Positions 1-15,697 of a stretch of DNA of 64,000 nucleotides are shown piece by piece. The DNA lies in assembly GCA_046331345.1 (NCBI GenBank), contig JAXLRA010000006.1, positions 623,614 through 687,613 on the forward strand. The letters are read 5' to 3'. The notes beneath the pieces are model-generated. The model had not been told where the DNA came from. It ran no database searches and worked only from the letters and a program-made list of their open reading frames with translations. The translations under genes and the position numbers were made by a program. This DNA comes from Vicinamibacterales bacterium (GTDB taxonomy: Bacteria; Acidobacteriota; Vicinamibacteria; Vicinamibacterales; CAVVIG01). Position 1 is the first letter of the stretch. Each line of letters opens with the position of its first letter.

Positions 1-163
1 CGCCCGCGTCGGTGCGCCCGGCGCCACTGACTACGACCGGTGCGCCTTCGAGCACCGCGAAGGCCGCCTCGAGCAGCCCCTGGACCGAGACGCCTGAAGC
101 CTGACGCTGCCATCCGACGAGCCCGGTGCCGTCGTAGGCGATCGTCAGCTTCAGGTGCCGCAC
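1..163 (-). CDS. truA: tRNA pseudouridine synthase TruA, N-terminal fragment (gene runs off the window start)
   Basis: Manual minus-strand translation from GTG at 163 gives VRHLKLTIAYDGTGLVGWQRQASGVSVQGLLEAAFAVLEGAPVVVSGAGRTDAGV. This is the typical TruA N-terminus with the GRTDAGVH catalytic-Asp motif. It is absent from the ORF track because it is truncated. Confidence 0.8.
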   Translation of the reverse strand, partial: MRHLKLTIAYDGTGLVGWQRQASGVSVQGLLEAAFAVLEGAPVVVSGAGRTDAG

Positions 164-164
164 G

Positions 165-746
165 TCAGGCACCCACGGGACGGGAGCCGGGCTTCACGAC
201 CGGAAGCCCCTGCGCGCAGAGCGGGCACGCATCGGGCTGGTAGGTCGGCAGGTCGACCGCCAGCAGCGCCTCGAACGGCACGTCGAAGGCGGCCTTGCCG
301 CCGCTCCGATCCACGATGGACGCGGCCCCCACCACGTGTCCGCCGGCCGCCGTCGCGACCTGCATCGTTTCCCGCGTGGAGCCGCCCGTGGTGCACACGT
401 CTTCCACGACGAGCACGCGGTCGGACTCGGACAGGACGAACCCGCGGCGCAGCGTCAGCACGCCGTCCTGCCGCTCCGCGAACAGGGCACGGACCCCGAG
501 GGCCCGGCCCACTTCGTGGCCGATGACCACCCCGCCGAGGGCCGGGGAGAGCACGACCGTGGCGCGCAGGTCGCGCACCCGCTCGGCGATCGCCCGCCCG
601 AGGTGCTCGGCCGATGCCGGGTGCTGGAGGACGAGGGCGCACTGCAGGTAACCGGTGCTGTGCAGTCCGGAACTCAGGCGGAAGTGTCCTTCGAGCAGGG
701 CGCCTGATTTCCGGAACAGATCGAGGAGTTCGTCTCGTGTGGCCAT
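165..746 (-). CDS. pyrE: orotate phosphoribosyltransferase
   Basis: ORF 165..848, start trimmed to ATG 746 (MATRDELLDLFRKSGALLEGHFRLSSGLHS). It has the PRPP-binding motif VLVVEDVCTTGGS and a C-terminal CPLC...KPGSR tail. Confidence 0.9.
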   Translation of the reverse strand: MATRDELLDLFRKSGALLEGHFRLSSGLHSTGYLQCALVLQHPASAEHLGRAIAERVRDLRATVVLSPALGGVVIGHEVGRALGVRALFAERQDGVLTLRRGFVLSESDRVLVVEDVCTTGGSTRETMQVATAAGGHVVGAASIVDRSGGKAAFDVPFEALLAVDLPTYQPDACPLCAQGLPVVKPGSRPVGA

Positions 747-846
747 GGGACTCGCTAGTATACAATCCGGGTTCGCTGAACCGATCGCCCCCGCCTTGCG
801 TCTACTAGTCGAGAACCCGATGTCTCGCCTGTTGGAGCTTCCGTCC

Positions 847-2433
847 ATGCGTCAATCGAAGAAGTGCGCCACCCTGGTGCTGGCCGCGGCCCTCGTCGCC
901 GGCCAGGTCCTTCCAGCCGCCGCCCAGGGGCAGGCCCAGCCCGTTCGCAAGCTCTCGGTCGACGAGGCCGTGAAGCTGGCGCTCGAGCAGAATCTCGGCA
1001 TCCAGATCGAGCGGATCAATCCGCAGATCGAGGACGTGGCCATCGCCCAGGCCCGCAGCTACTGGGTGCCCACGCTCTCCAGCACGCTGCAGAACAACTC
1101 GACGAACACCCCGTCGAGCAGCTTCCTGTCCGGCGGCGCCTCGAAGATCACGGACTCCCGATTCTCCACGCAGTTCGGCGTGAGCCAGCAGCTGCCCACC
1201 GGCGCGAACTACCAGTTCGCCTGGAACAGCGCCAGGGCGACCTCCACCAACCTGTTCACCAACTTCGACCCGCTGCTCAGCTCGAACGTGGCGTTCAGCA
1301 TCTCGCAGCCGCTGCTGCGCGGCCGCACCATCGACTCCTACCGGCAGCAGCTGCAGACCACCCGCAAGGATCGGGAAGCGGCTGACGTCTCGCTGCGCTC
1401 CACCATCGCGACCACAACGCGCAACGTGAAGAACGCCTACTGGGATCTCGCCTATGCACGCGAGAACCTCGGCGCCCAGCAGAAGTCGCTTGATCTCGCC
1501 AAGCGCGCACTGGCCGACAACGAGAAGCGGGTCCAGATCGGCACCATGGCCCCCATCGACATCGTCGAGGCTCAGAGCGAGGTCGCACGGAACGAGGAGG
1601 CGGTCATCGTCGCCGAGGCGGCGATCAAGCAGGCCGAGGACCGGCTGCGTGCGCTGATCCTGAATCCGTCGGCGCCCGACTTCTGGACCACGACCATCGA
1701 GCCGAGCGAGACGATGCCCTTTGCCCCGGTCAGCGTCGACGTGGACGGCGCGATCCGCAAGGCCATCAGCAGCCGCACCGACGTGCAGCTGGCCAAGAAC
1801 AGCCTCGAGAAAAGCGACATCAACCTGAAGTACTTCCGCTCGCAGATCCTGCCGGAGATCAACGCGAACCTGTCCTATCAGTCGAACGCGGTGGGCGGCT
1901 CGCAGCTGACGCCGGTGAACCTGACCGGCACCAACTCGGCGCGGTCGGTCATCGCACAGCGGGGCTACGGCTCGGTGCTGGGTGATGTGCTCACCAGCGC
2001 CTACCCCACCTGGACGTTCGGGGTCACGGTGGCCTATCCGCTCGGCGGCAACACGCAGGAAACCAACCTCGCCCGCGCCAAGCTGCAGTACTCGCAGGCG
2101 GAAACGCAGGTGAAGAACCTCGAGATGCAGATCGGCACGCAGGTCCGCGATGCTGCCCGCCAGGTGCAGACCAACGCCAAGCGCGTCGAGAGCGCCCGCG
2201 TCGCGCGCGATCTCGCCGAGCAGAAGCTGGCCGCCGAGGAGAAGAAGTTCGCCGCGGGCATCCAGATCAGCTTCTTCGTGTTCCAGGCGCAGCGCGACCT
2301 CGCGCAGGCCCGCACCAACGAGATCAAGGCGATTGCCGACTACAACAAGTCGGTGGTCGATTACGAAGCGGTCCAGGACACCTCACTGACCGGCAACGCC
2401 CAGATCACGTCGGCGGCGCAGGGCACACGGTAA
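847..2433 (+). CDS. TolC-family outer-membrane efflux protein
   Basis: ORF 655..2433. A signal peptide (MRQSKKCATLVLAAALVAGQVLPAAAQ) follows ATG 847; ATG 820 is also possible. The protein has long coiled-coil-rich OEP-like repeats. Confidence 0.85.
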   Translation: MRQSKKCATLVLAAALVAGQVLPAAAQGQAQPVRKLSVDEAVKLALEQNLGIQIERINPQIEDVAIAQARSYWVPTLSSTLQNNSTNTPSSSFLSGGASKITDSRFSTQFGVSQQLPTGANYQFAWNSARATSTNLFTNFDPLLSSNVAFSISQPLLRGRTIDSYRQQLQTTRKDREAADVSLRSTIATTTRNVKNAYWDLAYARENLGAQQKSLDLAKRALADNEKRVQIGTMAPIDIVEAQSEVARNEEAVIVAEAAIKQAEDRLRALILNPSAPDFWTTTIEPSETMPFAPVSVDVDGAIRKAISSRTDVQLAKNSLEKSDINLKYFRSQILPEINANLSYQSNAVGGSQLTPVNLTGTNSARSVIAQRGYGSVLGDVLTSAYPTWTFGVTVAYPLGGNTQETNLARAKLQYSQAETQVKNLEMQIGTQVRDAARQVQTNAKRVESARVARDLAEQKLAAEEKKFAAGIQISFFVFQAQRDLAQARTNEIKAIADYNKSVVDYEAVQDTSLTGNAQITSAAQGTR

Positions 2434-2439
2434 GCGCCT

Positions 2440-2636
2440 CTGAATTGCAGAATTCAGATTTCAGATTGCAGATTGGAATTCGGCACGTTGAGCGGTGGCC
2501 CCACCGGCACCGTGAACGAATTCCAAAATCCAATCTGCAATCTGAATTCTGCAATCTGCAATTCCCCAACCTCCAACCTCTGACCTCCGATCTCCCCGGT
2601 TCTGACTTCTAAGTTCTCCGTTCGAACTTCGGATAC
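2440..2636. repeat. heptad-phased AT-rich repeat element with inverted CAGATTN arms plus an in-phase extension
   Basis: Left arm 2441-2482 reads tgaattg cagaatt cagattt cagattg cagattg. Right arm 2518-2564 is its approximate reverse complement. Positions 2518-2636 parse into 17 consecutive 7-nt units in a single phase. Confidence 0.85.
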
Positions 2637-2645
2637 GATTTCGTC

Positions 2646-3428
2646 GTGCCGAAACTCTCGGTCACCATCATCACCAAGGACGAAGAGTCCGACATCGCCG
2701 GCGCGATCGAGTCCGTGGCATGGGCCGACGAGGTCGTGGTCGTCGATTCCCAGAGCAGCGATCGGACCGTTGAGATTGCGCGCGGCGCCTCGGCGCCGGT
2801 CGTGGTGATCGTGAAGGAGTGGCAGGGCTACATCGAGCAGAAGAACTTCGCGGCCGGACAGGCCTCGCACGACTGGATTCTCTCGCTCGACGCCGACGAA
2901 CGGGTCACGCCCGCGCTGGCCGAGCAGATCCGCCTCGTGCTGCAGGCGCCGGGGCACACGGCGTACGAGATGCCCCGCCTGACCTGGCACCTCGGTCAGT
3001 GGATCCGGGGCACGGACTGGTATCCCGACTACCAGACGCGGCTGTACAACCGGCGCAAGGCCCGCTGGACCGGACGCTACGTGCACGAGGCGGTGGCGGT
3101 GGACGGCACCCGCGGGCGGCTCACCGGAGAGCTGCAGCACTTCGCCTACCGCGACATTTCGGACCATCTCGAGACGATCGACCGCTACACCGCCCACGCG
3201 GCGCGGCAGATGTTCGAGTCGGGCCGCCGCGCCTCGCTCTTCGACCTCCTGCTCCACGGACCGCTGGCGTTCCTCAGGAACTACATTGCCAGGGGCGGCT
3301 TCCGGCTCGGACGCGTCGGCCTCATCGTCTCGACGATGAACGGGTATTACGTGTTCCTGAAGTTCGCGAAGCTGTGGGCGCTGCAGACCGCGCCCGAAGC
3401 GCGCCCCCGTGACGGGGCCGGCTCGTGA
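2646..3428 (+). CDS. family 2 glycosyltransferase
   Basis: GTG start. The N-terminus LSVTIITKDEESDIAGAIESVAWADEVVVVDSQSSDRT and a later LSLDADE motif are typical of the GT-A/GT2 fold. Confidence 0.85.
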   Translation: MPKLSVTIITKDEESDIAGAIESVAWADEVVVVDSQSSDRTVEIARGASAPVVVIVKEWQGYIEQKNFAAGQASHDWILSLDADERVTPALAEQIRLVLQAPGHTAYEMPRLTWHLGQWIRGTDWYPDYQTRLYNRRKARWTGRYVHEAVAVDGTRGRLTGELQHFAYRDISDHLETIDRYTAHAARQMFESGRRASLFDLLLHGPLAFLRNYIARGGFRLGRVGLIVSTMNGYYVFLKFAKLWALQTAPEARPRDGAGS

Positions 3429-3443
3429 CCGGGCGCTGACACC

Positions 3444-4577
3444 GTGTTCTCGCTGCACATCGACACCGCCCGCAGCTGGCGCGGCGGGCAGAACCAGGTG
3501 CTCCTGACCGTCAACGGCCTGCGGGCCGCCGGCCAGCGGGCGGCGCTGGTGGCCCATCCCGACGGCGAGCTGCTCAAGCGCGCCCAGGAGGGGCTCGACC
3601 TGATCCCCATCGCGGTGCGCACCGAGGCGGACCTGGCCGCGGGCTGGCGCCTCGCACGGGTGCTCGCCCGCCTGAAGCCGGATGTCATCCAGGCGCACGA
3701 CCCCCACGGCGTGGCGCTGGCGAGCACGGCACTCTCGCTGGGCGCCGCGTCACGGTGGCGGGCCGGGCAGCGGGCGCCGGCGCTCATCGCCACCAGGCGG
3801 GTCGACTTCCACCTGAAGGCGAACGCCTTCTCGCGCTGGAAGTACCGGCAGGTGGACTGCTTCATCGCGGCATCCGAGGCCATTCGCCAGATGCTCATCG
3901 GCGACGGCATCGCGCCCGAGCGGGTGGTCACCGTGCACGAAGGGGTCGACGTGGACCGCATCGACGCCGAGCCGCGCGTCAACGTCCACGAAGCGCTGTG
4001 GCTGCCGCACCAGGCGCCGCTCATCGGGAACGTCGCGGCCCTCGTCGCGCACAAGGGGCAGCGCTATTTCATCGAAGCGGCGCACCTGGTCGTGCAGAAG
4101 ATCCCCGACGCACGGTTCGTCATCCTCGGCGAAGGCGAGCTGCGCGAGCACCTCGAGCACCTGGTGCGCGAGTTCCACCTGGAGAAGCACGTCCTGCTGC
4201 CCGGCTTCCGCACGGACGTCATCGGCTGCATCAAGGGAGTCGACCTGTTCGTGATGAGTTCGATCACCGAAGGGCTTGGCACGTCGAGCCTCGACGCGAT
4301 GGCCTGCCGCAAGGCCGTGATCGGCACGAGCGCCGGTGGCATCCCCGAGGTTGTGGCCGATGGCAGGACCGGGATCATCGTGCCGCCCCGCGACGCGCAG
4401 GCGCTCGCGGACGCCATCATCAAGCTGGTGCGCGACGAGGCGCTGCGGGCGCGCATGGAAGACGCGGCCTACACCCGCGTGCGCGAGCGCTTCACGGTGG
4501 AGCGGATGGTCGCCGAAACGTCAGCGGTCTACGCCCGCCTTGCGGGCCGGCCGCACGTCGCGGACCTGCAGCGCTGA
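3444..4577 (+). CDS. family 4 (GT-B) glycosyltransferase
   Basis: 377 aa. The C-terminal half has the GT1/GT4 signature (FVMSSITEGLGTSSLDAMACRKAVIGTSAGGIPEVV). Confidence 0.85.
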   Translation: MFSLHIDTARSWRGGQNQVLLTVNGLRAAGQRAALVAHPDGELLKRAQEGLDLIPIAVRTEADLAAGWRLARVLARLKPDVIQAHDPHGVALASTALSLGAASRWRAGQRAPALIATRRVDFHLKANAFSRWKYRQVDCFIAASEAIRQMLIGDGIAPERVVTVHEGVDVDRIDAEPRVNVHEALWLPHQAPLIGNVAALVAHKGQRYFIEAAHLVVQKIPDARFVILGEGELREHLEHLVREFHLEKHVLLPGFRTDVIGCIKGVDLFVMSSITEGLGTSSLDAMACRKAVIGTSAGGIPEVVADGRTGIIVPPRDAQALADAIIKLVRDEALRARMEDAAYTRVRERFTVERMVAETSAVYARLAGRPHVADLQR

Positions 4578-4589
4578 TGCGCAGCGCGG

Positions 4590-4835
4590 AGGTCCGGCTG
4601 AAGCCGGACCCCACGAATGGGACGCTTGCTGCTGAACGAGGCATGAGCGGCTCCCAGATGCGGCTGAAGCCGGACGCCACCATCGGAAGCTTGCCGCGGA
4701 AGCCGGACCCCACGAATGGGACGCTTGCTGCGGAAGCCGGCTCCTACCAATGGGAACCTGGTTGCTGAAGCCGGAGCCCACGACGGCTAGCTTGCGGCTG
4801 AAGCCGGACCTCACCATGGGAAGTCTGCTGCCGGG
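4590..4835. repeat. tandem array of about 7 GC-rich units with a 33-34 nt period (core GAAGCCGGACCCCAC)
   Basis: The core GAAGCCGG starts at 4600, 4666, 4699, 4733, 4767 and 4800, giving spacings of 66, 33, 34, 34 and 33 nt. The first unit contains a perfect hairpin, GGTCCGGC-TGAA-GCCGGACC. Confidence 0.85.
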
Positions 4836-4846
4836 AGCACTCGTGG

Positions 4847-4866
4847 GGTCCACCTTCAGGTGGACC
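4847..4866. terminator. perfect 8-bp hairpin between convergent genes (candidate bidirectional terminator or REP)
   Basis: GGTCCACC-TTCA-GGTGGACC lies between the GT4 stop (4577) and the response-regulator stop (4874). There is no obvious U-tract. Confidence 0.5.
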
Positions 4867-4873
4867 TGGCCCG

Positions 4874-5554
4874 CTAGTCGTCGCGCAGCCAGCCCTGGAG
4901 CAGCCCGTACTGCACGACGTCGATGCGGCTGCGGAACCCCAGCTTCTTCATCGCGTTCCCCTTGTGCACCTCGACCGTCTTCACGCTGATGCCGAGTTCC
5001 GCGGCGATTTCCTTGTTGCTGTGCCCCTGGGCCACGAGCCGCAGCACCTGGTTCTCGCGGTCGCTGACCTGCGGGGTAGCCGATGGCCCGCGTGAGGGTG
5101 TGCGTCGGATGACGTTCGCCATCCTCGCGCCGAGCGCGTTGTCCACGTAGTCGCGCCCTGAGGCCGCAGCCCGCACTGCGGCCAGCAACTCCGACGAGGG
5201 GCTCCGCTTCAGCACGTATGCCGACGCACCCGCACTCAGCAGCTCGCGCACGTAGCCGTCGTCGTCGTGCCTGGTGAGGACGACCACCGAGGCGTCGAGA
5301 CCGGCCTGTTTCAGCTCGCGTGTGGCCACGAGCCCGTTGACGTCGGGCATCGACACGTCCATCACCACGACGCGCGGCTTGAGGGTTCGCACCCGCTCGA
5401 GGACCTCGCGCCCGCTCGGCACCACGCCGACGACATGCATGTCCGGCTGGCTGTCGATGAGCAGCGTCAATCCTTCTCGCACGGTCTCGTGATCTTCGGC
5501 GAGCAGGACATCGATACGCGGGACAGGCGACGAATCGGCGACGTCGGCAAACAT
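4874..5554 (-). CDS. NarL/FixJ-type response regulator (REC plus LuxR-type HTH)
   Basis: ORF 4874..5956 trimmed to ATG 5554 (MFADVADSSPVPRIDVLLAEDHETVREGL), which has a GGAG Shine-Dalgarno upstream. The C-terminus reads SDRENQVLRLVAQGHSNKEIAAELGISVKTVEVHK. Confidence 0.9.
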   Translation of the reverse strand: MFADVADSSPVPRIDVLLAEDHETVREGLTLLIDSQPDMHVVGVVPSGREVLERVRTLKPRVVVMDVSMPDVNGLVATRELKQAGLDASVVVLTRHDDDGYVRELLSAGASAYVLKRSPSSELLAAVRAAASGRDYVDNALGARMANVIRRTPSRGPSATPQVSDRENQVLRLVAQGHSNKEIAAELGISVKTVEVHKGNAMKKLGFRSRIDVVQYGLLQGWLRDD

Positions 5555-5610
5555 GGGCGCTCCTCGTGAGGAGTGAAGATTAACGCAGGAGCCCCGAAAA
5601 CGGTCAGCGA

Positions 5611-6525
5611 CTATCCGCGGCCAGCCTTCGCCGGCCGGCAGACGCCCTTGAGCGGGCACTGCGCGCTCCCGCGGGGCGTCCCGGATCCACAGGCGTTCAT
5701 CATGCCCAGATGGCAAACCGAGAAGTCGTACTTGATGGGATCCTCGGGATCCAGCGCACGGAGCGACCGGGTGATGTCCAGCGCCATGGGCCAGCCCGGA
5801 CTGGTGTAGCGGGTCAGCCGCAGGCAGCGCCCGACCCTGATGATGTGCGTATCGAGCGGCACGACCAGCCGTGACGGCGAGACGCGGCTCCAGATGCCCA
5901 GGTCGAGCGCGTCGCGGCGCACCATCCAGCGCATGAAGAGATTGAGGCGCTTGCACGCACTCCCGCCGGACGGACGCGGAAAGAAGTACCCGACGCCGGG
6001 CCTCGCAGGCACGCGCCCGTAGGCGGCCCGCAGATCGAGCGCCATGGCTCGCGCGGAGAAGCTGTCCAGCGCGTCACGGACATCCTCGCCGCCCGTGTCG
6101 CCTTCGAGGAAGAAGCCCTCGATCGAGCCGGATCGGTCCAGCATCTGGCGCAGCACCCAGAGGAGCGCGATCACGTCCACGCCGCGCGTCCAGCGGTGCA
6201 CGAAGTCGCGCAGCGGCCCGCCGTCGCGCGCGGGCTCGAACCGCCGGACGAACGCCGCCGGCCCGTCCCCCATCACGTCGGCGACCCGCCCGATCGACTG
6301 CATGACGCTGGTGACCCGGCCGAAGGCGAGTCCGGCCGCACAGAACGCCATCACCTCCTGATCGTCTGGCCGCGCATAGCGCCGCACGATCTGGATGGGG
6401 TCCGTCGCCGAGTCAGCCATGTTGAAGCTGTCGTACAACGCGTCCAGCGTTGGCTTCAGCACATCGGGTGTGCCCCTGCCGCTCCGTCGCACTTCCGTCT
6501 TTCGACCAGCCAATCCGCGATCCAA
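5611..6525 (-). CDS. TIGR02757 (DUF2400) family protein
   Basis: The motifs LNLFMRWMVRRDALDLGIW, VPLDTHIIRVG and DPIKYDFSVCHLG match my recollection of this family. The start is uncertain: TTG 6525, TTG 6513 or GTG 6492. Confidence 0.75.
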   Translation of the reverse strand: MDRGLAGRKTEVRRSGRGTPDVLKPTLDALYDSFNMADSATDPIQIVRRYARPDDQEVMAFCAAGLAFGRVTSVMQSIGRVADVMGDGPAAFVRRFEPARDGGPLRDFVHRWTRGVDVIALLWVLRQMLDRSGSIEGFFLEGDTGGEDVRDALDSFSARAMALDLRAAYGRVPARPGVGYFFPRPSGGSACKRLNLFMRWMVRRDALDLGIWSRVSPSRLVVPLDTHIIRVGRCLRLTRYTSPGWPMALDITRSLRALDPEDPIKYDFSVCHLGMMNACGSGTPRGSAQCPLKGVCRPAKAGRG

Positions 6526-6559
6526 TCTGAAATCAGCAATCTGAAATCTGCAATTCAGG
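6511..6559. repeat. heptad repeat tract (AATCTGA/AATCTGC type)
   Basis: caatccg cgatcca atctgaa atcagca atctgaa atctgca attcagg lies in the divergent region between the TIGR02757 gene and the acylase gene. Confidence 0.75.
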
Positions 6560-6581
6560 TCTGTGCCACTATGATTTTCGC

Positions 6582-9071
6582 ATGCGCCGCATCCTGGTCC
6601 GGCTCGTCCTGGCAGTCCTGCTGATCGTCCTGCTCGTCGCAGGCGGCGGCTACCTGTACCTGCGTCAGTCGCTGCCCGACTATGACACCGATGTCACTGT
6701 CAGCGGACTCACGCGCGACGTCGACATCGTGCGCGACGAGAATGCCGTGCCGCACATCTTTGCCTCGACGCGGCGTGATGGCCTGTTCGGCCTCGGTTAC
6801 GCGCATGCGCAGGATCGGCTCTGGCAGCTCGAGTTCCAGCGTCGCATCGGGCACGGCCGGCTCTCCGAGGTCTTTGGAACGGCAACCGTGGCGCAGGATC
6901 GGTTCCTTCGCACGGTGGGCTTCGGGCGCGCCGCGCAGCGTGCGTGGGACCGGCTCCCGCGGGAAACACAGGTCGACATCAACGCCTATGTCGCCGGCGT
7001 CAACGCATTCATCAACACCCATCACGGCCGGGCGCTGCCGCCCGAGTTCACCGTGCTCCGCTTCGAGCCCGAGCCGTTCACGGGCGTCGACGTGCTCGTG
7101 TGGGTGAAGATGATGGCCTGGGATCTCAGTGCGAACTACTCATCGGAGCTCGTGCGCCGCGATCTGCTTGCGAAGGTCGGCCCGGAGCGCCTGAACCAGC
7201 TGCTCCCGCCGTACCCGGTGGACGGCCTGAGCATCCTGAACGATCAGCCCAGCGTGCCGCCAGTGACCACCTCCCCGGTTCCACCGGCTCCGGGCATCAC
7301 CACCTCGTCGTCGGCCTGGCCGCTCTTCGAGCAGGGGCTGCGGAACGGCCATCCCCTGGTCGCCGACGCGCTGCTCGCCGGGGCGACGCGTGAGGCCATC
7401 GGTTCGAACAACTGGGTGGTGGACGGGACGCTGACCGCCACTGGTGCCCCGCTCCTCGCCAACGACCCGCACCTCGCGGCCAAGATCCCGTCCATCTGGT
7501 ATCTCGCGCATGTGTCGGCCGGCGACTTCGACATCATCGGCGCGACGCTGCCGGGCACTCCAGCGGTCGCACTCGGCCGCTCCAAGTACATGGCGTGGGG
7601 CGCCACCAATGTGGGCGCCGATGTCCAGGACCTCTACCGGGAGCGGCTCGACCCGACCGGGCGGCTGGCGGAATTCCGCGGGCAAATGGAGCCCATGACC
7701 ATCATCCCGGAAACCATCACCGTGAAAGGTGCGGCGCCCGTCGTGATGGACGTACGCATCACGCGGCACGGCCCCCTGGTGTCGGACGCCATCAACGCGA
7801 ACAACGCGGCGTCCAGGAACCCGCCACCGGGACCACCGCTCGAGCCGCTCGCCTTCCGCTGGACGGCACTGGACGACGAGGACCTGACGATAGCGGCCTA
7901 CATGCGCATGAACGAGGCGCGCAGCTGGGACGACGTCACGGAGGCCCTGAAGGATTACGTGGTCCCGTCGCAGAACTTCGTCTTCGCCACGACGGACGGG
8001 CACATCGGCTACTACGCGCCCGGTCGCATCCCGCTGCGCGCCTCGGGCGACGGGCTCCAGCCGGCGGACGGCTGGACGGGAGAGGCGGAGTGGACCGGAT
8101 TCGTCCCGTTCGATCGGCTGCCGCACGCCTACGATCCCCCCTCGCACATGATCGTCACGGCCAACAACCGCCCCTCGGGTGCGGCTGATGCGCCGATGCT
8201 CGGACTCGAGTACCCGAATCCCTACCGCGCCCAGCGCATCACCGACCTGCTGCGTGAGCTCACGGCAGCGAAGAAGCTCACACCGGACGACTTCGCCCGC
8301 ATCCAGGGCGATACGGTGTCCCTGCATGCGCGGAACCTGCTGCCGCGCCTCCTCGCGCACGTGCAGCCCACGACGGCGCTCGATCGCCAGGCGGTCGACA
8401 TGCTGCGGGCCTGGGACGACAACGCCTCTGGTGCATCGGCGGCCGCCGCGCTCTTCGAGGCCTGGTTCCTGCGCCTGGCGCCGTCGCTCGTGGGCGACGA
8501 ACTCGGCACCTCGACCACGGCGTACGAGAGCCGCTTCTCCGGCATCACGCGCTTCGTCGAGGCGAGCCTCGACGGCAACCCGGCCTGGTGCGACAACGTG
8601 ACGACGGGCATGCGCGAGACCTGCGACCAGGTGGTGACCACGGCACTGCACGCGGCCGTGGAGCAGCTGGCGGAGCGATTGGGACGCGAGCCCGAGCGCT
8701 GGCGGTGGGACGCCGTCCACACCGCGGTCTTTCCACACCAGGGGCTCGACGCAGTCGGTGCGCTGCGCCCGTTCCTGAGCCGGCGTCTGCCGTACCCAGG
8801 CGACTGGAGCACGGTGAACGTGGGGCCGGTCGCGGCCGACACGCCGTTCGAGCAGCGCTCGATCCCGAGCTACCGCGGGATCTTCGACCTCTCTCCCGCG
8901 CACGACGACCGCTACATCGAACCGGTCGGCGCGTCAGGCCACTTCCTGTCGCCGCACTACGACGACTTCATGCAGGACTGGAGTCAGGTGCGCTACCGCA
9001 AGGTGCGCATGGACAGGCTGGACATCGAGAAGAGCGCGCTCGGACGCATGCGATTACGAGCGTCCCGATGA
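6582..9071 (+). CDS. penicillin acylase family Ntn-hydrolase (possible acyl-homoserine-lactone or beta-lactam acylase)
   Basis: 829 aa with an N-terminal membrane/signal segment. It has VPHIFA...GLGYAHAQDRLWQLEF and the beta-subunit nucleophile context GSNNWVV. Confidence 0.9.
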   Translation: MRRILVRLVLAVLLIVLLVAGGGYLYLRQSLPDYDTDVTVSGLTRDVDIVRDENAVPHIFASTRRDGLFGLGYAHAQDRLWQLEFQRRIGHGRLSEVFGTATVAQDRFLRTVGFGRAAQRAWDRLPRETQVDINAYVAGVNAFINTHHGRALPPEFTVLRFEPEPFTGVDVLVWVKMMAWDLSANYSSELVRRDLLAKVGPERLNQLLPPYPVDGLSILNDQPSVPPVTTSPVPPAPGITTSSSAWPLFEQGLRNGHPLVADALLAGATREAIGSNNWVVDGTLTATGAPLLANDPHLAAKIPSIWYLAHVSAGDFDIIGATLPGTPAVALGRSKYMAWGATNVGADVQDLYRERLDPTGRLAEFRGQMEPMTIIPETITVKGAAPVVMDVRITRHGPLVSDAINANNAASRNPPPGPPLEPLAFRWTALDDEDLTIAAYMRMNEARSWDDVTEALKDYVVPSQNFVFATTDGHIGYYAPGRIPLRASGDGLQPADGWTGEAEWTGFVPFDRLPHAYDPPSHMIVTANNRPSGAADAPMLGLEYPNPYRAQRITDLLRELTAAKKLTPDDFARIQGDTVSLHARNLLPRLLAHVQPTTALDRQAVDMLRAWDDNASGASAAAALFEAWFLRLAPSLVGDELGTSTTAYESRFSGITRFVEASLDGNPAWCDNVTTGMRETCDQVVTTALHAAVEQLAERLGREPERWRWDAVHTAVFPHQGLDAVGALRPFLSRRLPYPGDWSTVNVGPVAADTPFEQRSIPSYRGIFDLSPAHDDRYIEPVGASGHFLSPHYDDFMQDWSQVRYRKVRMDRLDIEKSALGRMRLRASR

Positions 9072-9074
9072 CGC

Positions 9075-9190
9075 GGACTCCGGACTTCGGGCTTCAGGCT
9101 TCAGGGCTCGTCGACGTCAGGCCAGTCAGTCACTCGAGTCCGAAGCCGACCACGCGCAAAGCCCGGAGTCTGGCGCCCGAAGCCCCGGGC
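9075..9190. repeat. inverted heptad-type repeat between convergent genes (candidate bidirectional terminator)
   Basis: ggactcc ggacttc gggcttc aggcttc agggctc (9075-9109) is partly complementary to cgagtccgaagccgac...gcccggagtc...cccgaagccccggg (9134-9190). Confidence 0.55.
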
Positions 9191-9194
9191 GTGC

Positions 9195-9812
9195 TCAGAA
9201 ACGCGTAATCGGCACGCCGGCCTTGCACTGCGGGCACTCGGACGCCGTGTAGTTCGCGGGGGCCTTGAACTCGGCGAGCGTGATGTTCGGGACGCCGATG
9301 TCTACGATGGCTTCCAGGCGGTCGCAGATTTCGACCGTGGCAACCACGGTGCCGCCGGCGGCGGTGACGAGCTGCGCGCACTTCGCGAACGTCTCACCCG
9401 TATTGCGCACGTCGTCGGCGATGAGGACACGCTTCCCCCGCAGTTCGCGCTGGTAGTACGGGCGCAGCGAGTAGCCATATGTCCCCAGGTGGAACGGGGC
9501 GAACAGGCACGGCGGATGCGTGAGGCTGCGGCGGCTGTCGAGCAACCCGGCGATCGTGTGGGCCAGCAGCGCGCCGCCCGTGGCGGGGCCCGCCACCACC
9601 TCGACCTTCGACAGCAGGTCGCCCGGCATCAGGTCGAGCAGGTCCTGCGCAAGGCGCCAGATGGTCGATGGCTGCCGGAACAGCCCGTGCGGGTTCACGT
9701 ACGCCGCCCCGTGGTATCCGTTGCCGAAGTCGAAGTGCCCGTCTTCCATCAGCACTCCGGCGCTCCGCAGATCCTTCAGGGCCTTCTCGCGAATGTCAGC
9801 CTTCTTGTCCAT
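9195..9812 (-). CDS. type I phosphoribosyltransferase, OPRT-like paralog of unknown specificity
   Basis: It has the PRPP motif VLIADDVRNTGETF and a C-terminal CPQCKAGVPITRF knuckle resembling the pyrE tail. ATG 9812 (MDKKAD) is preferred over TTG 9827, which falls inside the GCCAATC repeat. Confidence 0.75.
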   Translation of the reverse strand: MDKKADIREKALKDLRSAGVLMEDGHFDFGNGYHGAAYVNPHGLFRQPSTIWRLAQDLLDLMPGDLLSKVEVVAGPATGGALLAHTIAGLLDSRRSLTHPPCLFAPFHLGTYGYSLRPYYQRELRGKRVLIADDVRNTGETFAKCAQLVTAAGGTVVATVEICDRLEAIVDIGVPNITLAEFKAPANYTASECPQCKAGVPITRF

Positions 9813-9817
9813 CAGGT

Positions 9818-9856
9818 GAATCGCCAATCGCTGGGTGCCAATCGCTACAGTGAACT
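9818..9856. repeat. heptad repeat tract (AATCGCC/AATCGCT type)
   Basis: gaatcgccaatcgctgggtgccaatcgctacagtgaactctagag lies between the pyrC stop and the PRTase start. Related GCCAATC/GATTGGC copies occur at 14822-14832 and 43851-43867. Confidence 0.6.
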
Positions 9857-11167
9857 CTAGAGGGCCACATCGACGGCGCTGTTCCGGTACACCACGCGTC
9901 CACCCACGATGGTGGCCGCTACACCGCCACGCAGTTCCCAGCCGTCGAACGGCGTGTTCTTCGACTTCGACTTCATCGACTTCGCGTCGACCTTCACCGG
10001 CATGTCCGGCGCAAGCACGGTGATGTCTGCCGGCGCCCCCTCATGGAGCGAGCCGCCCGGCACGCGCAGGATGCGCGCCGGGTTCACCGACAGCAGTTCC
10101 ACGAACCGCGCGAACGTGATGTGGCCCGGGTGCACCAGGCGGTCGAAGCAGAGCGAGACGCAGGTCTCGAGGCCGGTGATGCCGAACGGCGCGCGGTCGA
10201 ACTCGACGTGCTTCTCGTCGTAGTGATGCGGGGCGTGGTCGGTGGCGATCACGTCGACGCTGCCGTCGATGATCCCCTGCAGCATGGCGTCGCGATCCGC
10301 GGTCTCGCGGAGCGGCGGGTTCATCTTCGTGTTCGTGTCGTAGGGCACCGGCGACGCCACCGCATCGTCGGTGAGGATGAAGTGGTGCGGCGCCACCTCG
10401 CAGGTGACGTTCGCGCCGCGGGACTTGCCGTAGCGGACGGCGTCCAGCGTCTGGCGCGCGCTCATGTGAGCGATGTGGATGCGGCCCCCGGTGAGCTCGG
10501 CGAGCGCGATGTCGCGCTGCGCCATGATCGACTCGGCCTCGCCGGGAATGCCGCGCAGGCCGAGTTTCGACGCGACGAGCCCCTCGTGCGCCACGCCGTC
10601 GCCCTTGAGCGAGGGGTCTTCACAGTGCTCGATGACGAGCATGTCGAACATCTTCGTGTACTCGAGGGCGCGCCTCGCGAGCAGTGCCGTCCGGATCGGA
10701 TGCCCGTCGTCGGTGACGGCGACACAGCCCGCCTCCTTCAGCTCGCCGAGTTCCGCCATCTGCTCGCCCTTCTGCCCGACCGAGACCGCGCCGATCGGGT
10801 AGACGCGCGCCAGGTTGGCCTCAGCCGCCTTCTTGAGGACGTACTGCGTGACCCCGCCGTTGTCGTTCACCGGCGAGGTGTTCGGCATGCAGGCCACGGC
10901 GGTGAAGCCGCCGGTCACCGCCGACAGCGTGCCGGTGGCGACGGTCTCCTTGTGCTCCTGCCCGGGCTCGCGCAGGTGCACGTGCATGTCGATCAGTCCG
11001 GGCGTGAGCACCAGGTGCGCCGGGATCGGCACCACCTCGGTGCCGGCCTCCGCGGTCAGGTTGGTCCCGATGCGGGCGATGCGACCATCCTCGATGAGGA
11101 TGTCGAACACGCCATCACGTCCATTGGCCGGGTCGACGACCCGCCCGCCCTTAAGCAGCCGCTTCAT
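9857..11167 (-). CDS. pyrC: dihydroorotase
   Basis: ORF 9857..11284 trimmed to ATG 11167 ([16 protein letters not shown]...[18 protein letters not shown]). It has the HxH metal motif, and DHAPH later in the sequence. Confidence 0.92.
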
Positions 11168-12080
11168 GTTCAACTCCGCCGGCCAGGAGATAGAGCACCG
11201 CCATCCGGACGGCCACGCCGTTGGCGACCTGTTCGAGGATGACCGAGTACGGACCGTCGGCCACCTCGGAGGCAATCTCGACACCGCGATTCATCGGTCC
11301 CGGATGCATGATGATCACATCCGGTTTCGCGAGCGCGACCCGCGCCTCCGTCATTCCGAAGAGGTTGAAGTATTCGCGCAGCGAGGGGAAGAACGCCCCC
11401 TGCATCCGCTCCTGCTGGATGCGCAGCATCATCACCGCGTCGGCATCCCGCACCGCCTCGTCGACCGACGAGGTGACCGAGACACCGAGCTGGTCGATCC
11501 CGCGCGGCACCAGCGTCGGCGGGCCGCTCACCACGACGTGCGCGCCCAGCTTGGTCAGGAGCGCGATGTTCGAGCGCAGCACGCGGGAGTGCAGCAGGTC
11601 GCCGACGATGGCGACCTTGAGCCCCTCGATGCGCTGCTTGTGCTGGCGAATGGTGAACGCGTCGAGCAGCGCCTGCGTCGGGTGCTCGTGGAGGCCGTCG
11701 CCCGCGTTGATGATGCGGGACTTGCAGATGCGCGACAGCAGGTTGCAGGCGCCGGAGGAGGCATGCCGCAGGACGATCATGTCCGGCGACATCGCCTCGA
11801 TGTTCATCGCGGTGTCGGCGAGGGTCTCGCCCTTCAGCACGCTCGACGCCGCCACGGCGATGTTGAGCGTGTCCGCACTCAGCCGCTTCTCGGCGATCTC
11901 GAACGACGTCCGCGTGCGCGTGCTCGGCTCGTAGAACAGGTTCACGACCGTCTTGCCGCGGAGCGTCGGGACCTTCTTGATCGGACGCTCGCCGATCTCG
12001 CGCATGGCGATCGCCGTGTCGAGCACCCGGTAGATGTCGTCCGCGGTGAGGTCGTCGATGCTGAGCAGATCCTTCTTCAT
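11151..12080 (-). CDS. pyrB: aspartate carbamoyltransferase catalytic subunit
   Basis: It has the STRTR motif ([13 protein letters not shown]), HPTQ and the HPGPMNRG motif. It overlaps the pyrC start by 17 nt. Confidence 0.95.
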
Positions 12081-12607
12081 TCCTGGATCTCCACTTCGTC
12101 GGTCCCGTCCACTTCCGTGAGGCGCACCTGGACGCTCTGCGAGAGCGAGGTCGGCAGGTTCTTGCCCACGTAGTCCGCCTTGATCGGCAGTTCGCGGTGA
12201 CCGCGATCGACGAGCACCACCAGCTGGATGGACTTGGGCCGGCCGAATTCGAGCAGCGCGTCCAGCGCCGCCCGGATCGTCCGTCCCGTGTAGAGCACGT
12301 CGTCCACCAGGAGGATGCGCCTGTCGTCGATCGAGAACGTGATGTTGGTCTGGCCCACGACCGGCTGCGCGCCGATCGAGTGGCGCATCAGGTCGTCGCG
12401 GTAGAGCGTGATGTCGAGGGCGCCGACCGGCACCTCGTGCCCGGCGATCTCCCCGACCTGGTGCGCAAGGCGGCGGGCGAGCGGCACCCCGCGGCGCTGG
12501 ATGCCGACGAACGCCAGCTCCTCGACGCCGCGGCTGCGCTCCACGATTTCGTGGGCGATGCGCGTCAGCGTGCGGCCGATACGGTTGGCGTCGAGCACTA
12601 CAGCCAT
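12077..12607 (-). CDS. pyrR: bifunctional pyr operon regulator / uracil phosphoribosyltransferase PyrR
   Basis: ORF trimmed to ATG 12607 ([24 protein letters not shown]...). It has LDITLYRDD and the PRPP motif [13 protein letters not shown]. It overlaps the pyrB start by 4 nt. Confidence 0.92.
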
Positions 12608-12732
12608 GCGGAAGCCGGCCTTTCCGTCGACCGGTGCAGACGCACGGCCCACGACAGGTGGTGCAGGAACAGGGACGAGAGGTGCGGAGGCGTATGCGGC
12701 GGACGCCGCGTCTGGCGAGCAGGGTTCGTCAT
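12598..12732 (-). other. candidate 44-codon leader ORF overlapping the pyrR start (speculative)
   Basis: ATG 12732 is preceded by GAAGAGG. The peptide is [44 protein letters not shown]. Its TAG stop at 12598-12600 lies 10 nt inside pyrR. Confidence 0.25.
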
Positions 12733-12745
12733 GAGGACCTCTTCG

Positions 12746-12758
12746 CAGCCTCGCTGGG
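12746..12758 (-). promoter_or_regulatory. candidate PyrR-binding RNA box
   Basis: The minus-strand RNA reads GGCCCAGCGAGGCUGCGAAGAGGUCCUCAUG. Its core CCAGCGAGGCU resembles the remembered PyrR box UCCAGAGAGGCU. It sits directly 5' of the leader-ORF Shine-Dalgarno and ATG. Confidence 0.4.
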
Positions 12759-12789
12759 CCGCGTTAAAGAAGACAGGGATGAGTATACC

Positions 12790-12894
12790 GGAATTGCAGA
12801 TTGCAGAATTCAGATTGCAGATTCGATTGCAGAATTCCAATCCGACATCGGCGAATTCCAGTTCTGAAATCTGCAATCTGAAATCTGCAATTCC
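12790..12894. repeat. inverted heptad repeat (CAGATTG x5 / CAATCTG arms) in the pyrR/pyrK divergent region
   Basis: Left arm: ggaattg cagattg cagaatt cagattg cagattc. Right arm: gaattcc agttctg aaatctg caatctg aaatctg caattcc. Confidence 0.85.
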
Positions 12895-12915
12895 TGCGGT
12901 TGCTATACTGCCCTG

Positions 12916-13728
12916 ATGCCCCTCGACGTTGCTGCCGCGGTGATCGCGAATACGCGGCTGTCGCACGACTACAACGTGCTCGCGCTCCAGGCGCCGGAGA
13001 TTGCGGCGACGGCCGTGCCTGGACAGTTCGTCATGGTGAAGGCTGCGGCCGGCCATGACCCGCTCCTGCGGCGCCCGTTCTCCGTCTTCGAAATCCTGCG
13101 GGACCATGACGGCCGGGCCACGGGCCTCTCCATCCTGATCAAGCGCATCGGCCCGTCCACGCGCCTCCTCTACGATGCGAAGGTCGGCGACACAGTCGCC
13201 TGCCTCGGACCGCTCGGTCAGCCGTTCACGCTGGTCGATCCGCCCGAAGAGGGCTGGATGATCGCCGGCGGCGTGGGGCTCGCGCCGTTCTGGACGCTGG
13301 CCGAGGCGCTCGTCGCCAGGCACGTGAAGACCACGCTCTTCTATGGGGCGCGGAAGGGCGACGAACTCTTCTACCTGGACTTCTTCCGGAACCTCGGCGT
13401 CGACCTGGTGCTCACGACCGAAGACGGGAGCCTGGGCGAGAAGGGGCGCATCATCGCCCCGCTCGACCGAGCGCTCGCGTCGCGCCCGCAGGACGACGCC
13501 GTGACGCTGTATGCGTGCGGGCCGGAGGGCATGCTCGAGGCAACGGCACACACCGCCGCGAAGTACGGGCGGCGCTGCGAGGTGTCGGTGGAGCGAATCA
13601 TGGGCTGCGGCATGGGCGGCTGCTACAGCTGCATCGTGCCGATGAAGACCCCCTCGGGCGGCTTCCATCACGTGCGCTCGTGCATTGCGGGGCCGGTGCT
13701 CGACGCCGCCCAGATCGTGTGGGACTGA
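12916..13728 (+). CDS. pyrK: dihydroorotate dehydrogenase electron-transfer subunit
   Basis: It has an FAD/NAD-binding fold (RRPFSV, GGVGLAP) and a C-terminal 2Fe-2S Cys cluster (MGCGMGGCYSCIV...SCIAGP). Confidence 0.9.
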   Translation: MPLDVAAAVIANTRLSHDYNVLALQAPEIAATAVPGQFVMVKAAAGHDPLLRRPFSVFEILRDHDGRATGLSILIKRIGPSTRLLYDAKVGDTVACLGPLGQPFTLVDPPEEGWMIAGGVGLAPFWTLAEALVARHVKTTLFYGARKGDELFYLDFFRNLGVDLVLTTEDGSLGEKGRIIAPLDRALASRPQDDAVTLYACGPEGMLEATAHTAAKYGRRCEVSVERIMGCGMGGCYSCIVPMKTPSGGFHHVRSCIAGPVLDAAQIVWD

Positions 13729-13729
13729 C

Positions 13730-14704
13730 ATGAGCGCGCAGGAGGTTGGAGGTTCGAGGTTGGAGGTTGGGCAGACGGACACGGCCCCCATCGATCTTTC
13801 GGTGAAGATCGGCTCACTGACACTCGCGAATCCGGTGATGTCGGCGAGCGGGTGCTTCGGCTACGGCGTCGAGTATGCCGGCGTGGTCGACCTCGCGTCG
13901 CTCGGTGGCGTCGTCGTGAAGGGGCTGTTCCTCAAGGAACGCCAGGGTCATCCTGCGCCGCGCATCGTCGAGACGCCGGCCGGCATGATCAACGCGATCG
14001 GGCTGCAGGGGATCGGCGTCCACCGGTTCGTCAGCGAGAAGCTGCCGGAACTGCGGGAGCGCGGGGCCACCGTTGTGGTCAACGTGTGCGGCACCAGCGT
14101 TGATGAGTATGCGGAGGTCTCGCGCATCCTCTCGGATGCGGAAGGTGTCCACGCGCTCGAGCTCAACATCTCGTGCCCGAACATCAAGGAAGGCGGCATC
14201 CAGTTCGGCTGCAGCCTGGGAGGCACCCACGACGTGGTCAGCGCGGTGCGCAAGGTCACCCGGCTGCCGATCATCCCGAAGCTCACGCCGAACGTGACCG
14301 ACCCCGCCTCGTTCGCGCGGTCGGCCGAAGAGGCGGGTGCCGATGCGGTCTCGCTGGTGAACACCTTCCTCGCGCTGGCCATCGACGTGGAGACCCGGCG
14401 GCCCAAGATCTCGAACGGCATGGGCGGGCTGAGCGGCCCGGCCATCCGGCCCATCGCCGTGCGCATGGTCTACGAGTGCGCGCAGGCGGTGAAGATCCCG
14501 GTGATCGGCATGGGCGGCATCATGGACGCCCGCGATGCGCTGGAGTTCATGATTGCCGGCGCCACCGCGGTGCAGGTCGGCACGGCCAACTTCGTCGACC
14601 CGCTCATCTGGAACACGATCATCAACGGCATCACCGACTACATGCGCCGCCACAACATCAGCAAGGCCGCCGACCTGGTCGGCTCGGTGAACATGAAGCA
14701 CTGA
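13730..14704 (+). CDS. pyrD: dihydroorotate dehydrogenase (class 1B) catalytic subunit
   Basis: It reads LANPVMSASGCFGYG...NISCPNIKEGG...GGLSGPAIRPIA. ATG 13730 is coupled to the pyrK stop (TGAcATG). An alternative GTG at 13802 would give MKIGSLTLANPV. Confidence 0.9.
   Translation: MSAQEVGGSRLEVGQTDTAPIDLSVKIGSLTLANPVMSASGCFGYGVEYAGVVDLASLGGVVVKGLFLKERQGHPAPRIVETPAGMINAIGLQGIGVHRFVSEKLPELRERGATVVVNVCGTSVDEYAEVSRILSDAEGVHALELNISCPNIKEGGIQFGCSLGGTHDVVSAVRKVTRLPIIPKLTPNVTDPASFARSAEEAGADAVSLVNTFLALAIDVETRRPKISNGMGGLSGPAIRPIAVRMVYECAQAVKIPVIGMGGIMDARDALEFMIAGATAVQVGTANFVDPLIWNTIINGITDYMRRHNISKAADLVGSVNMKH
13741..13771. repeat. GGAGGTT heptad tract inside the annotated 5' end of pyrD
   Basis: ggaggtt ggaggtt cgaggtt ggaggtt ggg is the reverse complement of the CAACCTC units at 2567-2580. 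Confidence 0.7.
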
Positions 14705-14732
14705 TCTCACGCCACCGCCGAGGACGCTGAGG

Positions 14733-14767
14733 ACGCGGAGCACAATCCATCCAGAACGACTCCGCGT
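14733..14767 (+). promoter_or_regulatory. intercistronic hairpin with a PyrR-box-like loop (weak candidate)
   Basis: An 8-bp stem (ACGCGGAG / CTCCGCGT) encloses the loop cacaAUCCAUCCAGAAcga, between pyrD and pyrF. Confidence 0.25.
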
Positions 14768-14833
14768 TCTCCACGAGCTTCGTGGTGGTGAGTTGGCGCT
14801 TTGGCGCGCCTGAAGACTAGCGATTGGCAATCC

Positions 14834-15538
14834 ATGAACGAACTGCTCGTAGCCCTCGACGTCGACACCATCGACGAAGCACGTGCCCTCACCAACCAGC
14901 TCCGCGGCTGGGTTGGTGGATTCAAGATTGGCAGCCGCCTCTTCACCGCGAAGGGCCCGGCGTTCGTGGAGGAACTCGTGGCGCGCGGCGACCGCGTATT
15001 CCTCGACCTGAAGTTCCACGACATCCCGAACACCGTGGCCGGTGCCGTGGCGGCGGCCACGCGTCTGGGCGTGTGGATGGTGAACGTCCACGCCGGCGGC
15101 GGCCTCGACATGATGAAGGCGGCGCGGCAGGCCGCTGACGAGGAGGCGGTGAAGGCCTCCATGCAGCCGCCGATGGTCATCGCCGTCACGGTGCTCACCA
15201 GCTTCAGCCAGGACGGCATCGCTGCGACCGGCATCACATCGGCGATTCCCGACCAGGTGCGCCGTCTGGCCCTGCTCGCGCAGCAGGCAGGACTCGACGG
15301 TGTCGTGGCCTCCCCTCAGGAGATCGGCCTCATTCGCGAGGCCTGCGACCCGCGCTTCGCGATCGTCACCCCGGGCATCCGCGGCGCGTCCGATGCGAAG
15401 GGCGATCAGAACCGTACGGCGTCGGCCTCGGGCGCGCTCGCAGCGGGCGCCAGCTACCTCGTGGTCGGTCGGCCGATCATCGCCGCGCCGGATCCCCGCG
15501 CCGCCGCCCAGAAGATGGCGGAGGAGTGCGGCAAGTAG
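14834..15538 (+). CDS. pyrF: orotidine 5'-phosphate decarboxylase
   Basis: ORF trimmed to ATG 14834 (MNELLVALDVDT...FKIG...FLDLKFHDIPNTV), with the DxKxxD catalytic motif. Confidence 0.93.
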   Translation: MNELLVALDVDTIDEARALTNQLRGWVGGFKIGSRLFTAKGPAFVEELVARGDRVFLDLKFHDIPNTVAGAVAAATRLGVWMVNVHAGGGLDMMKAARQAADEEAVKASMQPPMVIAVTVLTSFSQDGIAATGITSAIPDQVRRLALLAQQAGLDGVVASPQEIGLIREACDPRFAIVTPGIRGASDAKGDQNRTASASGALAAGASYLVVGRPIIAAPDPRAAAQKMAEECGK

Positions 15539-15697
15539 GGCGGGCAAGGCTGGAAGGGCGGGTGGGGCTGCCCTGAAAGGCGGCCGGGCAGGCCGGACCG
15601 CGGGCAGAGACACGAAGGGCCGGGTTGGCCGGGGAAACACGCGGGAGGGACCTGAGTCCGACCCGCCGTGCCTGCCCTGCCCGCCCGGCCCTTTGCG

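Follow-up and report, generated by a model that had tools for sequence, protein, structure and literature searches.

Heptanucleotide repeat arrays between the genes of a Vicinamibacterales genome: a new lineage example of a known bacterial repeat type

In most bacterial genomes, no type of long simple-sequence repeat is more abundant than the heptanucleotides, according to the survey of Mrazek (2007) as it is summarized in PMC4679880 and PMC4692102. The repeats outlined in those summaries consist of tandem 7-nt units, with seven as the dominant unit length, a bias toward intergenic DNA and an attribution to polymerase slippage, and they share these features with the arrays described here for a Vicinamibacterales genome. 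The arrays in this genome differ from them in their density, being present in more than half of the true intergenic gaps, and in often forming paired inverted arms. In the window, by which we mean the whole 64,000-nt stretch of DNA analyzed, and in its relatives, the arrays are longer than expected by chance, prefer a length of 7 and change copy number by whole units; exclusion from coding sequence, expected since 7 is not a multiple of 3, is seen for the strong arrays of the window.

Among the cyanobacterial STRR arrays, the repeated units are CCCCAGT, TTGGTCA and CAACAGT. These 7-bp arrays form hairpins between genes, for example between hupS and hupL (PMC2670836), and they resemble the present arrays in their tandem 7-bp units, several unit families per genome, intergenic location and capacity to form hairpins (PMC2670836). 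The present arrays belong, however, to another phylum, none of those three units is found in tandem in the window, and the window genome is GC-rich whereas its arrays are mostly AT-rich. The host is not a cyanobacterium, as proposed previously from gene content, but a soil acidobacterium of the Vicinamibacterales; the closest pyrD homologues (96 to 97% identical) lie on metagenome contigs, and the named homologues come from Vicinamibacterales metagenome-assembled genomes (MAGs).

Heptamers in Xanthomonas occupy intergenic positions that are kept in related species while their length and sequence vary, and some are inverted (PMC4692102). The GGGAATC and GGGGATT repeats of Xanthomonas and Nostoc (Rehm et al. 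2015, PMC4692102) form one G-quadruplex-prone, G-rich family. In contrast, the window arrays comprise many families, most of which are not G4-prone, although GGGATTC-type arrays occur in some relatives (L158). Direct TAACTGA repeats have been described in Beggiatoaceae, cyanobacteria and Bacteroidetes (MacGregor 2015, PMC4679880). Here the likeness lies in an A/T-rich heptamer with a CTGA core, placed in sense orientation immediately before start codons (PMC4679880), and many AATCTGA arrays in other phyla look like these repeats. Such placement has many striking examples in the other phyla, but the orientation bias is weak overall (29 versus 18 among direct-only arrays), and several window arrays end instead at a -10 box. 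The TAACTGA sets, however, number 169 direct and 1 inverted (PMC4679880), whereas about half of the arrays found here are direct-only and about half are inverted pairs, and TAACTGA itself has zero occurrences on either strand of the window.

Other systems are more distant. The copy number of promoter-adjacent heptads can act as a rheostat, as for ATCTTTC at H. influenzae hmw and TTTTGAT at V. cholerae ctx, but in those pathogens each is a single contingency locus whose effect has been demonstrated, whereas the present arrays are genome-wide and any effect of theirs is putative. Satellites of the form (GATAGRA)n are found in Chloroflexus aurantiacus. REP, BIME and REPIN elements are likewise intergenic, palindromic, present in high copy number and sometimes terminator-like, but REPs are fixed units of 20 to 40 nt without an internal 7-nt period. 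No tandem copies of the published units (STRR1-3, TAACTGA, GGGAATC, GGGGATT, GATAGRA, ATCTTTC and TTTTGAT) were found in the window.

An earlier note on this DNA had suggested a distinct, possibly undescribed repeat class. The first part of that suggestion is not supported, since heptanucleotide repeats are already known from STRR arrays, from Xanthomonas and from the survey of Mrazek (2007) as relayed in PMC4679880 and PMC4692102. The second part stands at the level of the lineage and not of the class, as no description of such repeats in Acidobacteria was found in the searchable literature. Thus, the Vicinamibacterales arrays are a new lineage example of known, poorly understood bacterial heptanucleotide repeats. 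Why bacteria prefer 7-nt units, and whether the arrays have any role, has been asked since STRR sequences were reported in 1990 and since the survey of 2007. The present lineage is a dense and tractable case in which to address it, with arrays in more than half of the intergenic gaps, clean 7-nt turnover and adjoining promoters of putatively leaderless genes. Consequently, copy-number effects on termination or promoter output should be directly measurable.

The array upstream of the glycosyltransferase gene

The region from 2440 to 2636 separates a TolC-like outer-membrane gene (655-2433) from a family-2 glycosyltransferase gene that starts with GTG at 2646. Its G-rich 5' arm of CAGATTN heptads (2441-2483) lies 8 nt past the TolC-like stop codon (2431-2433) and leads into a central loop with a small GC-rich hairpin (2484-2516), which is followed by a 3' arm of AATCTGN heptads (2517-2565) complementary to 2441-2483. 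Two further blocks are read on the plus strand, the first made of AACCTCC-type heptads without an inverted partner (2566-2595), in phase with the preceding block, and the second a degenerate TTCTGAC-type block (2596-2630). The region closes with a layout in which the -10-like box TACGAT (2634-2639) and a 6-nt spacer precede the GTG at 2646 (plus strand, 2634-2648).

Both structural claims made previously for this region hold. The 119-nt tract 2518-2636 had been read as keeping one phase; its lag-7 identity is 63% and its blocks start 35 nt (5 x 7) apart, which fits a single unbroken phase. The arms had been described as inverted, and over 42 nt (2442-2483 and 2523-2564) they are 88% complementary, giving a predicted hairpin of -78 kcal/mol (z = -7.5). 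In L123 and L124, the closest relatives, the block order of the window is retained, including the AACCTCC-type heptads, with different copy numbers and an unrelated loop; that of L124 is wholly different. In L127, L129 and L179, the same gap holds GTCAGAA/TTCTGAC hairpins, the 3' arm of which is homologous to the window block 2596-2630.

Period seven across the window

Arrays were called by a self-match of at least 80% across three units, with the same rule for every period, and compared with shuffles keeping local composition. The 64-kb window held 9 strong period-7 arrays, against a mean of 0.12 and a maximum of 2 in the shuffles. Neighboring periods under the same criterion gave 0 arrays (periods 8 and 10 to 14), 1 array (period 9) and 4 arrays (period 6). 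Tandem Repeats Finder placed period-7 calls at 2444-2475, 2531-2562, 2566-2588, 6524-6554, 9081-9108, 12793-12833, 12863-12891, 13741-13770, 25203-25227, 49162-49186 and 50094-50124. At the 11 loci listed in the earlier note, lag 7 was the top lag (of lags 4 to 11) in all 11, and the shuffle test gave P <= 0.0005 in 10; the locus 9818-9856 was weak (P = 0.02).

The location of the heptads outside genes was also borne out, as every strong array falls in a gap, though about 90% of the window is coding. Only 13741-13771 is ambiguous, being placed by gene callers in an N-terminal extension of pyrD. Roughly 20 true intergenic gaps exist in the window, of which about 12, mainly those of low GC, carry heptads; with the dominance of period 7 in relatives, this supports the pervasiveness proposed for the family. 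The description of the arrays as AT-rich islands applies to most of them (41 to 55% GC versus 68% overall) but not to the GC-rich loci 9075-9110 and 49158-49232; the GC content of 13741-13771 is intermediate.

The remaining loci differ in gap type and unit. A direct AATCTGA/AATCAGC array (plus strand, 6511-6559) in a divergent gap ends 10 nt before a TATGAT box (6570-6575) located 6 nt upstream of the penicillin-amidase ATG (6582). GC-rich GGCTTCA-type heptads (9075-9110) and a complementary arm (9162-9185) share a convergent gap, spanning 9075-9185. The weak GCCAATC/GCGATTG array (minus strand, 9818-9856) closely precedes a start codon in the gap between two minus-strand genes. A direct TTCTGAC array (25198-25232) separates the AhpC stop codon from a P-type ATPase gene, with both genes encoded on the minus strand. 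An inverted TCAGAAN/TTCTGAN pair (22621-22690) occupies a convergent gap. Mixed GCCAATC and AATCAGA heptads, partly inverted (43840-43913), lie in a divergent gap beside a TATTGT box 7 nt before the GTG at 43929. Between pairs of minus-strand genes are found a GC-rich inverted pair, GGCGATG/GGGCGCT versus CGCCCAT (49158-49232), and an inverted CAGATTT/AATCTGN pair (50084-50186), the latter upstream of a GGAGA Shine-Dalgarno sequence and an ATG at 50069. Inverted arm pairs similar to that of the glycosyltransferase upstream gap lie at 12790/12863, 22618/22670, 50102/50159 and 9082/9162; arms are complementary within each locus, while units differ from locus to locus.

The pyr genes are flanked by several of these features. 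An inverted CAGATTG/AATCTGN pair (12790-12894) lies between the divergent pyrR-like and pyrK genes and is itself flanked by outward-facing TATACT boxes, at 12782-12787 on the minus strand and at 12904-12909 on the plus strand, the latter 6 nt before the pyrK ATG (12916). Four GGAGGTT units (plus strand, 13741-13771) stand between the pyrK stop codon and the conserved part of pyrD. This array is identical in L001 (10001-10044), a syntenic contig from activated sludge, and absent in L002, a MAG contig. Upstream of the pyrR-like gene, a conserved stretch GGCCCAGCGAGGCUGC (minus strand, 12735-12775) is also present in L001 and L002; by eye it resembles a PyrR-binding loop, and Rfam 15 at gathering score gave zero matches in the whole window, including this stretch. 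The similar GC-rich hairpins 14705-14800 and 15538-15707 have a period of 9, not 7; the second, with period-9 arms and no heptads, is downstream of pyrF, and in L002 the same arrangement surrounds a canonical terminator.

A separate repeat family is found at 4597-4873, with about seven tandem 33-nt units (GCTGAAGCCGGACCCCACGAATGGGA...) and a terminal GGTCCACCTTCAGGTGGACC hairpin. The GGTCCACCTTCAGGTGGACC hairpin returns at 48564-48625, paired with GCCTGAAGGC and flanked by GTAG...CTAC, where it looks like a REP or REPIN element. Hairpins with a CCTGAAGG loop, similar to this family, are found inside the heptad-hairpin loops of L138 and L195.

A few units are reused within the window (AATCTGN at 5 loci, TTCTGAC at 3, AATCGCC at 2 and AACCTCC/GGAGGTT at 2). 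Furthermore, an identical 34-mer, AATCTGCAATCTGAATTCTGCAATCTGCAATTCC, is found at 2532-2565 (plus) and 12790-12823 (minus), 10 kb apart, and is absent from all 402 other loci examined; an arm of about 32 nt ending in CTGCAATTC is common to four loci. The 34-mer could have arisen by ectopic gene conversion or mobility. Together with the shared arm and the inverted termini, it speaks for a dispersed MITE- or REP-like mobile element with heptad-built arms, moved in trans by a transposase, an explanation to which we give only a small chance. We estimate that an identical five-unit order would arise by chance in a few per cent of cases, given about four unit variants and 21 arm pairs. The copies share no internal sequence, show no target-site duplications and have loops that are unrelated both between copies and between orthologues; in addition, no transposase is linked to the arrays, and one orthologous site varies by whole units rather than by the presence or absence of a discrete element. 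An identification as MITEs was not supported, as copies share arms alone, without target duplications.

Turnover of units among relatives

To place the arrays in a wider context, 80 orthologous loci (57 to 92% identity) were obtained by a glycosyltransferase protein scan and thus chosen regardless of repeats. In these 339 kb, period 7 gave 65 arrays, against 12 for period 8, 10 for period 9 and 4 for period 6. The heptads are therefore not confined to the window, as the earlier note had anticipated, and period 7 is dominant in loci chosen by protein. Inverted heptad arrays are present in L001 and L002 at the gaps where the window has them, but with different units. The pyrR/pyrK gap contains CAGATTG units in the window, whereas those of L001 are GCTGATT/GCGATTG and those of L002 are AATCTGC/AATCAGA; pyrD of L001 is 96% identical to that of the window, yet the unit of this gap differs.

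The gap upstream of the glycosyltransferase gene contains unrelated units in dozens of relatives, among them TTCTGAC, AACCTCC, GAGCCAC, GGGATTC/GAATCCC, GCTGGTG/CCAGCCAC, GGGGACT/AGTCCCC and GGGAATT. No array is found there in L165, L168, L172, L201 and L188, and in some array-less relatives the upstream stop codon adjoins the promoter box. At one orthologous site with conserved flanks, GAGCCAC is present in at least 11 copies in L178, 7 in L174, 4 in L169, about 3.5 in L185 and 3 in L184, a pattern characteristic of slippage by whole units and of fast turnover.

Two side observations concern further relatives. A GTTAGAA/TTCTAAC heptad hairpin is shared by L129 (about 4160-4250) and L179 (about 2730-2750), and the loop of L129 is about 75 nt longer, with two extra GC-rich hairpins; the additional sequence looks like a small element inserted or deleted. 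Small dispersed repeats have been reported inside cyanobacterial heptamer arrays, and the L129 loop recalls these. Past the glycosyltransferase gene, on its downstream side, L155 (917-1048), L160 (863-900) and L177 (1271-1386) have long inverted arrays of GGGTTCA (telomere-like TGAACCC), where the corresponding genes of the window are nearly adjacent (3428/3444).

The comparison of relatives shows that arrays are made and remodeled one 7-nt unit at a time in noncoding DNA. Once a unit has acquired a point change, the change is propagated in phase, which gives a drifting motif in a constant register, and at the same intergenic position arrays appear, switch unit and vanish among relatives. We favor, with a confidence somewhat above even, the explanation that the arrays are heptanucleotide long simple-sequence repeats generated by slippage, of the same kind as the cyanobacterial STRR arrays. 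The one-unit step would be replication slippage, with a possible preference of the replisome for 7-nt loops. The arrays lie between the upstream stop codon and the -10-like box (or Shine-Dalgarno sequence) of the next gene, and they may fill dispensable DNA between those limits. Among the three functional ideas proposed previously (untranslated-region elements, protein-binding arrays and slippage-prone spacers), the last fits best, given the 7-nt steps, the turnover of units and the array-less relatives. Slippage is also supported by the strong excess of period 7, by the lack of a special motif and by the lack of a gap-context preference of the arrays, as judged with crude gene calls; for the same phenomenon elsewhere, polymerase slippage has already been proposed.

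Slippage alone is countered by the reuse of few units at many loci of one genome and by the identical 34-mer at 2532-2565 and 12790-12823. Thus, some copying between loci or selection on sequence is needed as well. Moreover, the slippage model provides no mechanism for a preference of exactly 7 nt.

A reused vocabulary could instead point to sequence recognition. Searched in one genome per species, CAGATTN repeated three times gave at least 120 stretches; among the matches listed, the hosts belong to Acidobacteriota, Chloroflexota, Planctomycetota, Bacteroidota, Gemmatimonadota, Verrucomicrobiota, Cyanobacteria and some Proteobacteria. In other phyla, many AATCTGN arrays reach as far as the start codon. 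That the arrays are sequence-specific sites for a periodic RNA- or DNA-binding protein (S1, cold-shock or nucleoid), in a network like that of TAACTGA, would account for the presence of CAGATTN/AATCTGN in many phyla among the matches listed, for the many arrays abutting start codons in AATCTGN sense orientation and for the small unit vocabulary of the window. This appears improbable to us in view of the controls. In viral contigs, CAGATTN repeated three times gave 67 stretches and three heptads of the same composition gave 31, 19 and 83, and a specially conserved cross-phylum motif was rejected on these counts. Since control heptads are about as common, the spread across phyla reflects a general propensity to form heptads and not a conserved motif. 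Likewise, the 893 kb around the CAGATTN stretches, a set seeded by that one heptad, contained 293 period-7 arrays with 113 distinct units, against 21 of period 8. The diversity of this set (more than 100 units), unrelated units or none in orthologous gaps, GC-rich and AT-rich units side by side, and a weak orientation bias of direct-only AATCTGN arrays relative to the downstream gene (29 versus 18) all stand against a sequence-specific protein.

The wide occurrence of AATCTGN, the uniform arm order and the location of arrays next to start codons or -10 boxes in four phyla (Acidobacteriota, Chloroflexota, Planctomycetota and Bacteroidota), together with the genome-specific unit vocabulary and the identical arms at distant loci, raise a further idea, that of an actively made or spread element class common to many phyla with a conserved trans-acting factor. 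That factor would be a periodic nucleic-acid-binding protein or an enzyme generating or copying 7-nt repeats at hairpins. We lend this idea little credence.

Hairpins, promoter-like boxes and gene annotation

Each inverted pair is an intergenic hairpin whose two arms have expanded and remained complementary. Under slippage, this complementarity may be kept because the hairpin is selected as a transcript-end or insulator structure or, alternatively, through template-switch copying between arms. The pairs have a polarity, with a G/purine-rich 5' arm and a C/pyrimidine-rich 3' arm, in 12 versus 2 of the independent heptad hairpins (protein-seeded loci, window, L001 and L002; p = 0.013). Non-heptad inverted repeats at the same loci share it (G>C in 21 versus 8, A>T in 24 versus 8), which ruled out a heptad-specific G-rich-first order. 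Heptad hairpins therefore behave like ordinary intergenic hairpins, and arm polarity characterizes the intergenic hairpins of these genomes in general, as it does A-tract/U-tract bidirectional terminators.

Alternatively, the inverted pairs could be selected RNA structures, acting as terminators or 3'-end stabilizers without a U-tract, with the repeats as the way in which long stems are built. We regard this as unlikely, if with more to recommend it than a mobile element or a protein-binding site. The predicted stems are very stable and begin a few nucleotides past stop codons, their arm polarity is that of other intergenic hairpins, and the 3 repeat-carrying convergent gaps of the window all hold inverted pairs. 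Transcript stabilization or termination has been proposed for STRR hairpins, and arrays adjoin canonical terminators in L040 and L073. Additionally, a scan of positions 1-20000 for canonical hairpin-plus-U terminators found 7 sites against 7.1 expected, none of them at an array; as canonical terminators do not exceed chance in these 20 kb, another kind of terminator is needed. The array stems of the window are AT-rich, lack a T-run and do not qualify as intrinsic terminators.

The distribution of the pairs argues against such structures as a general explanation. Assigned with crude gene calls, inverted pairs fell in 33 co-directional, 8 divergent and 5 convergent gaps, against a background of 314, 93 and 95, and all arrays together were spread over the three gap types roughly in proportion to the background. 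The calls are crude in that they place about 30 of some 190 arrays within the cores of ORFs that are probably spurious. With that proviso, a concentration of inverted pairs in convergent and co-directional gaps, as terminators should show, was rejected. Roughly half of the arrays are direct-only, and several relatives have no hairpin at all in the glycosyltransferase upstream gap. Furthermore, the pair 12790-12894, being placed between outward-facing TATACT boxes, may not be transcribed at all; with inverted pairs in divergent gaps between outward-facing -10 boxes perhaps untranscribed, a terminator role is not general.

A conserved TAnnnT box, mostly TACACT or TAGACT, precedes the GTG start by 6 to 9 nt in 73 of 77 glycosyltransferase orthologues, where the chance frequency is 1.2%. 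The same layout recurs in the window as TACGAT-6-GTG (2634-2648), TATGAT-6-ATG (6570-6584), TATACT-6-ATG (12904-12918) and TATTGT-7-GTG (43929). These -10-like layouts (TAnACT/TAnnnT, 6 to 9 nt to the start codon; window and L123-L202) lack a Shine-Dalgarno sequence. With the box only 6 to 9 nt from the start codon, the genes downstream of the arrays are probably leaderless, which suggests widespread leaderless mRNAs in Vicinamibacteria. If so, the arrays lie upstream of the -10 element and not in the 5' untranslated region (UTR), and a role as 5' UTR elements, as once proposed, is unlikely for several loci at which the array ends at a -10-like box 6 to 7 nt before the start. Canonical sigma-70 promoters showed no excess over chance in a scan of 1-20000. 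Heptads as a -35 box were also rejected, because unrelated units fill the -35 region in different relatives and no TTGACA-like word was seen 17 nt from the box in the cases read by eye.

Returning to arrays formed by slippage, their functional effect is likely modest. They may serve as spacers, their long stems could stop or protect upstream transcripts, and they would provide a copy-number-tunable context directly upstream of the promoters of leaderless genes.

The arrays also have practical consequences. They will confound the assembly and binning of soil acidobacterial genomes, and gene callers read through them, leaving pyrD and pyrK homologues 16 to about 50 residues too long and inflating N-termini in public protein sets. 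In the window, pyrD is called from an ATG overlapping the pyrK stop codon, so that the heptads are translated; its homologues have 325 aa. Each GGAGGTT unit there (13730-13775) contains a Shine-Dalgarno-like GGAGG, and an alternative pyrD start is an in-frame TTG inside the array, 7 nt after a GGAGG. Over-extended calls include the L001 genes 9187-9999 and 10001-10978 and the L002 gene 1064-2017, the last being pyrK, called from 1064 although arrays reach about 1200.
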